Source of the DNA: a virus
Taxonomy: Duplodnaviria > Heunggongvirae > Uroviricota > Caudoviricetes
DNA length: 28,255 nucleotides
Virus record (IMG/VR): IMGVR_UViG_2778261277_000006
Location: 1 to 28,255 of that record
Direction: 5' to 3' (one strand)
Under the pieces are notes generated by a model. The model ran no database searches, had not been told where the DNA came from, and was given only the letters and a program-made list of their open reading frames with translations. Positions 18,470 to 22,347 of this stretch are shown here, piece by piece. Position numbers and translations under genes: made by a program. Each line of letters begins with the position of its first letter. The stretch's first letter is position 1.

Positions 18470-18709
18470 ATGTCATCAAAAAATAAAACCAGCAGAACAA
18501 CTACCCGTAACATCCGCTTTCCAAACCGAATGATCGAGCAGATACATATTGCTCTTGAAGAAAAAGGATCAGGAAATTTTTCTGCATGGGTCATTGAAGC
18601 CTGTCGCCGAAGACTGTCAACAGAGAAGAGAATAAAGACAGCACAACGGAATACTGAAGAACTAAATACCCGGTCAGGTTACTTTTACCATCGTACTAAT
18701 GGACAATAA
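18470..18709 (+). CDS. Small conserved lambdoid protein, YlcI-like (DUF3950-type)
   Basis: 79 aa, MSSKNKTSRTTTRNIRFPNRMIEQIHIALEEKGSGNFSAWVIEACRRRL...; recalled similarity to the small ORF between bor and cos in lambda/DLP12; opposite strand to the late genes, as in lambda. Confidence 0.6.
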   Translation: MSSKNKTSRTTTRNIRFPNRMIEQIHIALEEKGSGNFSAWVIEACRRRLSTEKRIKTAQRNTEELNTRSGYFYHRTNGQ

Positions 18710-19338: not shown

Positions 19339-19853
19339 CAGGCTAATGCGCTTTCCTGGTCACGACGAATAACCTGACCATAACAGTTATTTGAACGAAT
19401 GCGGCAATCGCGCCCCCTGTCCTTAATCCACCAGCGAATCGCCTCGCAGGCACCTTTACGATCACCTGCATTAAGCCGCTTATAAAACGTCGACGGGAAA
19501 CACTTACCGGGGCCAATGTTATAGGGGCAAAATGACGCGATACCCGCTTTCTGGGGTTCGGTCAGTGGTACTTTAATATTACGTTCCACCCATGTCAGCG
19601 CCTTATTACGTTCAATAGCGTTAACCTGGTCGCATTTTTCCTTCGACAGCTTCATTCCCGGTATGACGGGCTTACCATCCACCATTGTGGCACCACGACA
19701 GATGGTCCATATGCCGGAGCCATCGCGGTATGCAGTGGTGTGATTCCCCTCTTTTTCATCCAGAAACTGATCGAAAATGTCAGGGGCAGGAGCACTGGCG
19801 GCAATCAGTGCCAGAACAGCAGCCGACAGGCTGTATCTGATTTTTACGTTCAT
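19320..19853 (-). CDS. R: Endolysin, lysozyme type (GH24-like) with putative N-terminal SAR/signal segment
   Basis: 177 aa; catalytic pattern E-x8-D-x5-T in [16 protein letters not shown]; N-terminus [24 protein letters not shown] is a weakly hydrophobic Ala-rich segment; upstream of Rz. Confidence 0.8.
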
Positions 19854-19966
19854 GGGTATTTATCAGGATTTATCGGCTTCAAATCCCCGGATATGTTAAA
19901 TCTTACCTCGCCAGTGATGGGCACAGGCGGGAGGAGGATGTCAATCTGATATACACAGAGGTGACT

Positions 19967-20227
19967 ATGGATTACACAAATCTACCAAAACAAACTTTTG
20001 CTGATTTAATCGCACTCAGGCAAGCAGTCGTAGCTCTAATCAACTTGTTGCCAGAGAAGGAAAAGGAATTAGTTAAAGCGCTTCTTAACAGAACTGCCGC
20101 CGATTTTTCATCATATTCACTGACAGATGACCTTGTGGACCTTCCTGAATTAATTGCAGCGTCCGCCATTAAGCTTACTGAAGAGATTTACCCTCCTCAA
20201 AAATCTTCACAAAATTCCTGCGAGTAA
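19967..20227 (+). CDS. Hypothetical small protein (~86 aa), convergent with and overlapping the 3' end of the 183-codon gene
   Basis: ATG at 19967 with AGAGGTG 4-5 nt upstream (track shows GTG at 19961); acidic 86-aa ORF; terminator-like hairpin plus T8 just downstream; no recognised family. Confidence 0.3.
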   Translation: MDYTNLPKQTFADLIALRQAVVALINLLPEKEKELVKALLNRTAADFSSYSLTDDLVDLPELIAASAIKLTEEIYPPQKSSQNSCE

Positions 20228-20726
20228 CTTCAATGCAATAATCGTAAAACGCCGCAAACTGCTCATCGCGGTGTTTTTTTTCATCTTCAGAAGGAATCAG
20301 CACCGACAATTTTTTATTCAGATCAGCGACGCTGCCCTCCAGTTTTTCAATGAGCGATTCAATATCATCTTTTTCTGACCGCAATGCCGTCGGTGGCGTC
20401 TTCAGAGAACCAGTAATTCTTCCCGGTAGTTTTCCTCTGTAGGTTATCCACACATTCTGCGCCTCTAAAATTATGGGGCGCTTTCCCGGCAACGGTTCGT
20501 TCCCTTCACATAACCCGGCAGCAATATCCCGGAACAATATCTTTGCCTGTTTGATTGCCTCTGTCTCGTAAAACTCCAGCGTTGCCCCTTCAACACGCTC
20601 CATGCTGATATTCAGATCAACAATTTCACCGGCAAAACGTTCTTTATCCTGTAAGGCTACAATTACCGAGACTTTATTCTCAAAATTGCGGGTCCCTTTC
20701 ACAATCAACTCATAGCTTTTAATCAT
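20175..20726 (-). CDS. Hypothetical protein, 183 aa, inserted between holin and endolysin
   Basis: ATG 4 nt after the holin stop (...GAG TAA ttca ATG), with GGGGAGAG upstream, so probably translationally coupled to the late lysis operon; lower GC than flanking genes; no recognised motif. Confidence 0.6.
   Translation of the reverse strand: MIKSYELIVKGTRNFENKVSVIVALQDKERFAGEIVDLNISMERVEGATLEFYETEAIKQAKILFRDIAAGLCEGNEPLPGKRPIILEAQNVWITYRGKLPGRITGSLKTPPTALRSEKDDIESLIEKLEGSVADLNKKLSVLIPSEDEKKHRDEQFAAFYDYCIEVTRRNFVKIFEEGKSLQ
20248..20281 (+). terminator. Putative intrinsic terminator for the small plus-strand ORF
   Basis: AAACGCCGC ... GCGGTGTTTTTTTT: short GC stem with a 12-nt loop followed by a run of 8 T. 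Confidence 0.3.
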
Positions 20727-21285: not shown

Positions 21286-22347
21286 TCACAAAATTGTATT
21301 TGCTGATAACATACTGATTTCCTGAATGGTCTTATTGAACCGTTCTGTCTCAAGCTCAACACCTAACGCCCGACGCCCCAGCGCCATTGCTGCTTTTATT
21401 GTGGAACCGGATCCCATAAAGAAATCAGCAACCAGATCGCCAGGTCGACTACTGGCATTGATTATTTGCCTGAGCATATCCGCCGGTTTCTCACACGGAT
21501 GTTTGCCCGGGTAGAACTGAACGGGCTTATGCGTCCAGACATCGGTATAAGGCACGGAGACTGATACGGAGAAATAGCGCCGGAGAGATTTAAACTCATC
21601 CAGCAATTCAGAATATTTGCGATTCAGTGAATCATAAGATGCCACCAGTTGGTGGTGTGGTTGTTCCAGTTGTTGTTCCTGAAACTTCTCTGCCGCTATA
21701 CGGGAAAACAATGCCTGTAACTTCCGGTAGTCAGCCTCATTCGGCAACTGCCACTGACTGGCACCAAACCAGTGGGAAACCATATTTTTCTTACCAGTGG
21801 CTTCGGCAATCTGTTTTGCCGTTATACCCAGTTCGGCACGAGCATCCCTGAAATACGAAATCAGCGGTGCCATTATGTGCTGTTTGAGTTGCCTTTCTTT
21901 TGCCGCATAGCCGTCACTTTTGCCGCAATATGGCCCCTGGTAATGTTCAGCAAACAGAACACGCTCTGTGGCAGGAAAATATGCGCGCAGACTTTCTTTA
22001 TTACACCCATTCCAACGTCCGGACGGCTTCGCCCAGATGATATGGTTAAGCACGTTGAAACGTTCACGCATCATGATCTCAATATCAGATGCCAGGCGAT
22101 GTCCACAGAACAGGTAAAGGCTTCCGGCAGGTTTCAACACCCGCCAGAACTGGGCCAGACAGTGGTCCAGCCACTTAAGGTAATCTTCATCCCCTTTCCA
22201 CTGATTGTCCCAGTCGTTGGGTTTCACTTTGAAGTACGGCGGATCGGTAACAATCAGGTCAATGGAATCATCAGGCAGGGACTGAATAAAATGCAGGCAA
22301 TCAGCGTTGATTAAATCAACACTGTTTATTTTTACAGTATTTTTCAT
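21286..22347 (-). CDS. Orphan DNA methyltransferase, beta-class, probably N6-adenine
   Basis: 353 aa; motif IV DLIVTDPPYF near the N-terminus and AdoMet motif I DLVADFFMGSGSTIKAA near the C-terminus (IV-before-I order is beta class); no restriction endonuclease gene adjacent. Confidence 0.85.
   Translation of the reverse strand: MKNTVKINSVDLINADCLHFIQSLPDDSIDLIVTDPPYFKVKPNDWDNQWKGDEDYLKWLDHCLAQFWRVLKPAGSLYLFCGHRLASDIEIMMRERFNVLNHIIWAKPSGRWNGCNKESLRAYFPATERVLFAEHYQGPYCGKSDGYAAKERQLKQHIMAPLISYFRDARAELGITAKQIAEATGKKNMVSHWFGASQWQLPNEADYRKLQALFSRIAAEKFQEQQLEQPHHQLVASYDSLNRKYSELLDEFKSLRRYFSVSVSVPYTDVWTHKPVQFYPGKHPCEKPADMLRQIINASSRPGDLVADFFMGSGSTIKAAMALGRRALGVELETERFNKTIQEISMLSANTIL

Follow-up and report, generated by a model that had tools for sequence, protein, structure and literature searches.

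A putative moron-like gene convergent with the tail of a YdfR-family late gene in lambdoid prophages

Among the described arrangements that come closest to the locus considered here, lambda bor is a moron that stands beside the lysis genes, is transcribed against the late operon and is expressed from the prophage; in prophage regions of B. subtilis, the type I toxin-antitoxin pairs txpA/RatA and bsrG/SR4 overlap convergently at their 3' ends. The morons of lambdoid phages were reportedly treated by Juhala et al. and by Hendrix et al., both in 2000. Krinke and Wulff are said to have found that the lambda OOP RNA converges on the 3' end of cII, with an overlap of about 55 nucleotides (nt) and a cleavage dependent on RNase III, and bidirectional intrinsic terminators shared by convergent genes were reportedly described by Ju, Li and Liu in Nat Microbiol in 2019. 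Here, we analyze a stretch of 28,255 nt (IMG/VR record IMGVR_UViG_2778261277_000006, positions 1 to 28,255; hereafter the window), a lambda-like prophage whose late operon occupies the minus strand, and within it a small plus-strand gene, here called Y, whose 3' end overlaps the C-terminal tail, here called the X tail, of a late gene of 183 amino acids (aa). The reading that we favor, on balance, is that Y is an uncharacterised moron-like accessory gene, separately transcribed, that constitutes one half of a small mosaic module.

The small gene and its family

The module occupies about 19854-20390 of the window and consists of the region upstream of Y, a strong Shine-Dalgarno sequence, Y itself and a hairpin lying inside the X tail of its partner. 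Its elements are the following.

19967 (ATG) to 20225-20227 (TAA), plus strand: Y, 86 codons, antisense to the late operon
19957-19963, plus strand: Shine-Dalgarno sequence of Y, AGAGGTG, 3 nt 5' of the ATG, as read from the sequence
19854-19966, plus strand: conserved upstream region of Y; its opposite strand is the leader just before the start codon of the lysozyme gene R
19869-19874 and 19892-19897, plus strand: candidate weak sigma-70 promoter, -35 TTTATC and -10 TATGTT with a 17-nt spacer
20246-20281, plus strand: hairpin and T8; 20246-20255 pairs with 20268-20277 in a 10-bp stem with a 12-nt loop, and T8 occupies 20274-20281
20726-20175, minus strand: 183-aa gene of the YdfR/DUF1327 family, the partner of Y
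20175-20390, minus strand: X tail, the last 71 or so codons of the 183-aa gene
20175-20227, both strands: dual-coding overlap of 53 nt between the 3' ends of Y (plus) and the 183-aa gene (minus)

A first-pass annotation made from the letters of the window had proposed an open reading frame (ORF) of about 86 codons, starting at ATG 19967 behind AGAGGTG, antisense to the late operon, overlapping the 183-codon gene by about 50 nt and followed by a hairpin and T8. These coordinates are borne out, the overlap measuring 53 nt, with the hairpin at 20246-20277 and T8 at 20274-20281. An in-frame GTG at 19961 is an alternative start that would give a product of 88 aa.

The window by itself gives no significance to such a frame: dinucleotide shuffling of 19854-20300 yielded ORFs of at least 86 codons in 140 of 2000 trials (7%), and the case for Y therefore rests on comparative evidence. 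Homologues of Y in other lambdoid prophages of Escherichia coli and Salmonella came from an exhaustive phmmer search over 1.84 billion representatives and from a subsequent profile search. The diverged members measure 89-93 aa and are 38-55% identical to Y (P0141, P0142, P0144, P0146 and P0147; BLASTP of Y against P0142, 1e-17), and they allow three lineages to be distinguished: A, the window type; B, represented by P0141 and P0146; and C, represented by P0142 and P0144. The start codon and a Shine-Dalgarno sequence are kept in the distant homologues, in the form of TAAGGA 7 nt before an ATG or GTG. In the part of Y outside the overlap, the differences between lineages fall on the codon positions in the order 3 > 1 > 2 (32/22/18, 34/28/17 and 33/21/17), and the indels between lineages or variants measure 21, 12, 6, 6 and 6 nt, all multiples of three. 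Six-frame tblastn scores best in the Y frame, with 7e-17 against at best 2e-7 in the other frames for locus L107 and 7e-17 against 2e-13 for L104. Between lineages A, B and C the coding region is, moreover, more conserved than the region upstream of it. The codon usage of Y (+0.03 per codon) is the best of the six frames; its score lies near the 95th percentile of false frames and at the 5th percentile of true ones, the latter being consistent with a GC content of 41%, where the window's genes have 54% (the neighboring gene of the ydfR family, at 44% GC, is AT-rich too).

We conclude from these comparisons that Y is very probably a real coding gene. The first-pass annotation had entertained the alternative that the ORF is spurious and that only the terminator-like element is real, a view contradicted by the diverged family, the kept start and Shine-Dalgarno sequence and the coding-type substitutions. 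The analysis of codon usage and conservation that it had suggested comes out in favor of the gene, with the frame kept among distant homologues and the substitutions concentrated on third positions.

The family itself is already catalogued. Y matches phrog_2572 over its full length (E = 3.4e-52, residues 1-86 on profile positions 1-86 of 86), its diverged homologues match the same profile, and RefSeq/PGAP lists it as a hypothetical protein (WP_072033262.1, with the close variant WP_001306174.1; also WP_001557934.1); the protein of the window is present on 544 contigs. These entries give neither a function nor an overlap partner nor an embedded hairpin. The conserved overlap with a partner tail and the hairpin embedded in it are unnoted in the annotations and papers searched, and the literature searches returned nothing on Y. 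Y matches no family of Pfam or NCBIfam. The label DUF1823, which the PhiR phage records carry, was rejected, as the window's Y scores 13.8 bits (E = 0.07) and the copy in L005 15.3 bits against a Pfam threshold of 25 bits; a Pfam ABATE match is likewise below threshold. Two large TPR-repeat proteins from the exhaustive search (P0139 and P0140) were judged to be additive repeat artefacts, and P0143, which appears to be a corrupted copy of Y, was set aside.

The AlphaFold2 model of Y (pLDDT 70-72) has helices at residues 8-25, 30-48 and 59-74 and a disordered tail, and the protein is acidic, with an isoelectric point of 4.6. Helix 1 is of borderline hydrophobicity (maximum KD19 1.62); as it carries the conserved residues D13, R18 and Q19, we read it as part of a bundle core, and membrane association is possible. 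The model suggests a small, acidic, soluble three-helix protein.

The partner gene, the module and the embedded hairpin

The convergence of Y with a late gene is a constant feature of the family. At all the loci read, a convergent ORF of the late strand overlaps Y, by 53 nt in lineage A and by 59 nt in lineages B and C, and these partners measure 73, 116, 144, 168, 174, 183, 211, 243 and 250 aa. In one form, the partner is a DUF1327 protein of 168-250 aa encoded between holin and lysozyme. In another, it is a stand-alone gene of 73 aa that follows Rz (DUF2514) and precedes the terminase genes, with a lysis cassette of the phage-lysozyme type in L104 and of the GH19 type in the Salmonella loci L108-L111 and L120-L124. 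In a third, it is a 144-aa protein without DUF1327, encoded downstream of the Q antiterminator and of moron-like genes (L112 and L115). What the partners have in common is the X tail, some 40-70 residues at their C terminus: BLASTP of the window's X tail against the 73-aa protein gives 6e-5, and hhalign matches the last 37 residues of lineages A and B to those of lineage C at E = 1e-4. The convergent, overlapping pair proposed at first pass is thus kept in three lineages and in at least three genomic contexts.

In the window, the partner is the 183-aa gene, which matches Pfam DUF1327 with 117.3 bits (cut-off 25) over residues 1-112 and also matches phrog_2091; residues 113-183 form an add-on tail beyond the DUF1327 model. 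The codon usage of the X tail in its own frame, +0.45 per codon, exceeds that of the window's average gene, and the same C terminus, …RDEQFAAFYDYCIEVTRRNFVKIFEE[GS]KSLQ, recurs in Salmonella, in proteins of 168-169 aa, and in E. coli, in proteins of 176 and 211 aa. The 176-aa variant differs by a 21-nt in-frame deletion in the X tail (window 20316-20336); variants of this length are common, P0034 being found on 463 contigs. The YdfR family is modular throughout, with members of 103, 114, 176, 183, 211, 246, 268, 296, 305 and 329 aa. Judged by these sequence comparisons, the 183-aa gene is real as far as its stop codon. RefSeq/PGAP nonetheless flags it as a pseudogene, "incomplete; missing C-terminus" (L001, L002, L116 and L117); since the reading is intact to the stop, the flag appears to be an annotation artefact, and it is likely due to a family model that covers only about 112 residues and to the overlap of Y with the end of the gene. 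RefSeq in this way keeps Y and flags its partner, whereas several phage records do the reverse: in 2H10 and PhiR63_1 the 183-aa gene is annotated and Y omitted, and PhiR5_1 has both. As the two genes both appear real, with a 53-nt overlap, both should be annotated, and the DUF1823 label should be dropped. A different origin of the region between ydfR and R, as the decayed C-terminal domain of the YdfR variants of 296-329 aa, was considered and rejected, because that domain is unrelated and does not run antisense through Y.

For the YdfR protein of E. coli K-12, binding to the catalytic N-terminal half of RNase E was reported from two-hybrid and pull-down assays, as was co-purification of RNA (PMC13232886, 2026); the finding concerns the DUF1327 domain of the partner gene and neither X nor Y. 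Were this binding general for DUF1327 proteins, the late-operon partner of Y may affect RNA turnover during lysis.

Some lambdoid prophages of Escherichia, Shigella and Salmonella carry the module and others do not. Of 5426 complete E. coli genomes, about 294-353 (some 5-6%) have it, among them CFT073, HS, E. coli B ATCC 11303 and APEC BEN2908, and so do eight sequenced phage records; in the well-studied strains CFT073, HS and E. coli B, it lies in a Qin-like cryptic prophage. In the window, Y sits in a gap of 321 nt that separates the 183-aa gene from R. In the Qin prophage of K-12, without the module, the 103-aa ydfR (L119, 1655-1966) overlaps rrrQ by 4 nt, and the Qin prophage of CFT073 has 657 nt where that of K-12 has 92 nt. 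A Salmonella deletion derivative (L103, 2573-2648) keeps only the first 25 or so codons of Y, joined to sequence past the T-run, and its YdfR-family gene is cut to 139 aa.

Small convergent ORFs that are unrelated to Y fill the same slot between ydfR and R elsewhere. In L006 (Stx2 phage 86), the slot holds a plus-strand ORF of 104 aa (1835-2149; phrog_1853), and in L008 one of 90 aa (1255-1527; phrog_2411); each has an (A)GAGG Shine-Dalgarno sequence, and the first 55 nt or so beside the start of R are shared with the window. A similarity of Y to these two ORFs that was perceived by eye found no support, neither BLASTP nor hhalign indicating homology. The slot appears, from these sequences, to be a hotspot for small antisense-oriented genes.

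The region upstream of Y belongs to the module as well. About 115-130 nt upstream of Y align across the three lineages, the best-kept blocks being ATATTTATCAGGnTTTATC and TGGaTATGTTaA, and the region is retained where R is not adjacent, beside terminase in L104/L108 and beside a terminator in L112/L115; this conservation makes it part of the Y module, and more than a leader of R. It probably contains the promoter and the 5' untranslated region (UTR) of Y. The candidate sigma-70 promoter listed above has 7 of 12 consensus matches, and both of its hexamers lie inside the two most conserved upstream blocks. No conserved structure was found in the 5' UTR of Y, and an Rfam scan of the window gave no match. 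The sequence that adjoins the R start codon (19854-19900), ATATTTATCAGGATTTATCGG, has a GATAAAT direct repeat on the minus strand and is kept even where the module is not beside R; K-12 (L119, 1656-1680) shares only GATATTTAT of this block, and R has no obvious Shine-Dalgarno sequence in the window. The block may be a promoter of Y, a translation leader of R or a recombination scar. The A at 19925 of the window is a minority allele that breaks the inverted repeat GCCAGTG..CACTGGC in the Y leader, a repeat that 41 of 43 relatives have.

At the other end of Y, the hairpin spans 19-50 nt past the stop codon and T8 extends to 54 nt. It is predicted to fold with -12.7 kcal/mol, at z = -2.9 to -4.0 relative to dinucleotide shuffles, and a consensus scan found five terminator-like sites in 2 kb where 2.0 +/- 1.5 would be expected. 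Read on the opposite strand, the hairpin falls within the codons EDEKKHRDEQFAAF of the 183-aa gene, in the X tail. Its sequence is close to a palindrome, AAAACGCCGC…GCGG(C/T)GTTTT, preceded by an A-tract and followed by a T-tract, and the hairpin for this reason resembles a bidirectional terminator. The stem, which the first-pass annotation had recognized as terminator-like, is kept in all three lineages, reading ACGCCGC/GCGGCGT in A and B and ACGCCACC/GGTGGCGT in C; the lineage C stem embodies a double change from G:C to A:T that costs X two replacements, R to H and A to V, and the innermost stem pair alternates between G:C and C:G among the lineages. Pairing is found in 87% of cells, against 40-69% when the partners are slid. 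The window's own T at 20272, which makes a G.U pair, is a minority allele (6 of 43 distinct sequences); most relatives have C there, and with it a G-C pair and -14.6 kcal/mol. A 49-nt piece that includes the hairpin (20235-20283) is 96% identical in L007 (2181-2229), where the flanks are about 76% identical; L007 encodes a 329-aa YdfR variant and lacks Y, and the identity suggests a recombination joint among YdfR C-terminal extensions. We think it probable that the hairpin terminates the Y transcript.

The neighboring features of the late region are these.

21039-21010, minus strand: strong terminator-like hairpin, 13-bp stem and T7, about 65 nt upstream of the holin start
20946-20731, minus strand: S holin, class II (phage 21-type)
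19853-19320, minus strand: lysozyme R, with an N-terminal hydrophobic stretch resembling a signal-anchor-release (SAR) domain
19338-18859, minus strand: Rz with embedded Rz1, followed by Nu1 and terminase

By its position, the hairpin at 21039-21010 is likely a tR'-type terminator overridden by Q antitermination; just upstream of it is a DNA methyltransferase gene (21286-22347). A gene of the DUF3950 (YlcI/YnfO) family, 79 aa on the plus strand at 18470-18709, lies between Rz and Nu1 in a bor-like position and is a second small gene antisense to the late operon in this late region. A plus-strand terminator-like site in the 5' coding part of R (19819-19844), GCAGCCGACAGGCTGT followed by ATCTGATTTT, stands about 120 nt upstream of Y and might block plus-strand read-through from the Rz side.

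Proposed expression of the module and rival readings

The arrangement lends itself to a simple scheme of expression. Y would be transcribed alone from a weak promoter in 19854-19966, in opposition to the late operon, and its transcript would end at the hairpin and T8, giving an mRNA of about 380 nt. With a promoter and a terminator of its own, Y would be made while the late operon is silent, in a lysogen or a cryptic prophage; that it is an accessory gene of the moron kind, expressed in lysogens, we put at about an even chance. In lambdoid late transcription, Q-modified polymerase ignores intrinsic terminators. Late transcription antiterminated by Q would read through the hairpin and silence Y by convergent transcription, and it is only under such antitermination that a 3' end and a terminator embedded in a late gene would be viable. 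The embedding would also explain why the two pieces travel as a mosaic unit.

Over its whole length the Y mRNA is complementary to the late mRNA at the ydfR-R junction, so that a secondary antisense effect on leaky expression of the lysis genes is possible; since the pair also occurs after Rz, such an effect cannot be the whole story. A closer bond, in which X and Y form a functionally coupled pair and the Y protein, its mRNA or both restrain the partner or the lysis genes until Q-driven transcription sets in, seems to us doubtful. If true, it would make the module a mobile switch of lysis timing, lysis safety or an addiction-like kind, moving among lambdoid prophages and attachable to different N-terminal domains, DUF1327 included. 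If instead neither Y nor its antisense transcript affects the lysis genes or YdfR, Y would be one more uncharacterised prophage accessory gene.

Several results weigh against a moron-like accessory gene. Searches of PDB sequences and Foldseek searches of BFVD and PDB returned nothing significant, and so no structural or family clue to the function of Y, and the family is confined to enterobacterial prophages. Among close relatives (about 100 loci from IMG/VR plus the Salmonella loci, at most 8% diverged in Y), the part outside the overlap has 13 synonymous, 18 non-synonymous and 1 nonsense change, where 8.8, 22 and 1.1 are expected under neutrality, and the pairwise pN/pS of about 0.65 in the Y frame amounts to weak purifying selection; at a divergence this low, dN/dS among these relatives is undecided. 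Thirteen of 102 copies are damaged (seven by ATG to ACG, four by insertions, one by a nonsense change and one by a large deletion), four of the damaged copies having a 2-nt insertion located at the last codon, and a few frameshifted variants occur on short contigs (P0011 and P0012). As to expression, a consensus scan of 19854-19966 found no promoter with at least 9 of 12 matches. Covariation in the hairpin is indecisive with three lineages only, 92 of 500 shuffles reaching the observed score; its U-tract is degenerate in lineages B and C and strong only in A; and part of the hairpin's conservation could stem from that of the peptide R-D-E..A-A.

Much of this would be expected if Y was once a gene and is now near-neutral, what matters being the hairpin (whether it terminates transcription in both directions, stabilises RNA or serves as a recombination joint) and the ORF persisting because the copies are young. 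The counts of synonymous, non-synonymous and stop changes among close relatives are not significantly off neutral, the damaged copies and the ORF length (p ~0.07) point the same way, and the hairpin piece is as similar in the Y-less L007 as a recombination joint would be. We nonetheless find this rather unlikely, for frame, length, start, Shine-Dalgarno sequence and helix pattern are kept across lineages at 40-55% identity, 89 of 102 copies (87%) are intact, viable phages and old cryptic prophages being among their carriers, and it is the coding region that has been better conserved than its own upstream region across lineages A-C. A further reading would locate the function in an antisense RNA whose targets in the late mRNA would be the end of the YdfR-family gene and the R leader, with the ORF secondary or the transcript dual in function; RNase III cleavage or transcriptional interference would then silence the lysis genes in the lysogen, in the manner of lambda OOP and cII. 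The convergent units keep their 3' coding overlap of 53-59 nt in all contexts, the predicted transcript would reach 107 nt into X, as far as the hairpin, and long stretches of Y are more invariant than the flanking DNA in lineages A-C. This is quite unlikely, in our estimation, because there is no RNA family match and no conserved 5' structure, because the codon-position pattern, the in-frame indels and the kept Shine-Dalgarno sequence bespeak selection on a protein, and because in L104/L108 the pair sits after Rz, with no downstream lysis gene to control.

Two remaining readings carry very little weight with us. The minus strand has an ORF of 65 codons (20169-19972), whose ATG lies 5 nt past the stop of the 183-aa gene, and this might be the real gene of the late operon, with Y as its antisense shadow. 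Its frame is open in all three lineages and its pN/pS is 0.46, its third codon positions being in common with those of Y. Its codon usage (-0.98 per codon) is typical of non-coding frames, it lacks a Shine-Dalgarno sequence, and its start and length vary by lineage (ATG and 65 aa, TTG and 115 aa, TTG and 59-63 aa); variation is lowest at the second codon position of Y, which is its own first position, and in tblastn it falls short of the Y frame by 4 to 10 orders of magnitude. We judge it to be a shadow ORF and not a gene, the contrary being scarcely credible; it mimics purifying selection and could mislead tests of conservation that are blind to frame. That X and Y work as toxin and antitoxin, or as an addiction-like pair, in the toxin/antidote arrangement which the first-pass annotation had raised, is very improbable. 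Two small prophage genes are indeed tightly coupled in a conserved way, ParE, HicA and GnsB genes lie nearby in related loci, and convergent type I pairs overlapping at their 3' ends do exist. Neither partner, however, matches a toxin, antitoxin or defence family of Pfam, NCBIfam or PADLOC. The X tail is hydrophilic (grand average of hydropathy, GRAVY, -0.66; maximum KD19 0.35), so that the small hydrophobic peptide of such systems is missing; X is usually the tail of a larger late protein and Y is coding rather than a small RNA; and the two are convergent, not a co-directional operon.

Comparison with described systems

With the moron-like accessory gene retained as the preferred reading, the likenesses and differences of the locus to the systems named at the outset can be set out. 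X and Y resemble txpA/RatA and bsrG/SR4 in being prophage-borne, convergent and overlapping at their 3' ends; they differ in having no small hydrophobic toxin and no family matches, and in that Y encodes a conserved protein. The geometry of OOP and cII recurs in a convergent 3' overlap of 53-59 nt in a lambdoid phage and a terminator within the transcription unit of the other gene, but OOP is a 77-nt non-coding RNA where Y would be carried by an mRNA of about 380 nt for a conserved protein. With the bidirectional terminators, the hairpin shares a near-palindromic GC stem flanked by A- and T-tracts, at the place where convergent units meet. Unlike them, it lies inside the coding sequence of the partner, some 70-100 nt before its stop codon; it cannot therefore be the normal terminator of the partner, and its presence there would be tolerable only because of Q antitermination.

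The closest parallels are with the morons, and with bor in particular. The differences from morons are that the 3' end and terminator of Y are embedded in a late gene whose tail travels along with it, and that the promoter of Y is a candidate one and its expression in the lysogen putative; the product, moreover, looks like a cytoplasmic helical protein, whereas bor is a lipoprotein. Like the morons, the Y module is present or absent at the same map position, opposes the late operon, has by its sequence a terminator of its own and is AT-richer; like bor, Y lies within or next to the lysis cassette and, in L104/L108, between Rz and the terminase genes. If our reading is right, the locus would offer a clear case of a late gene that harbors both the 3' end and the terminator of a moron.

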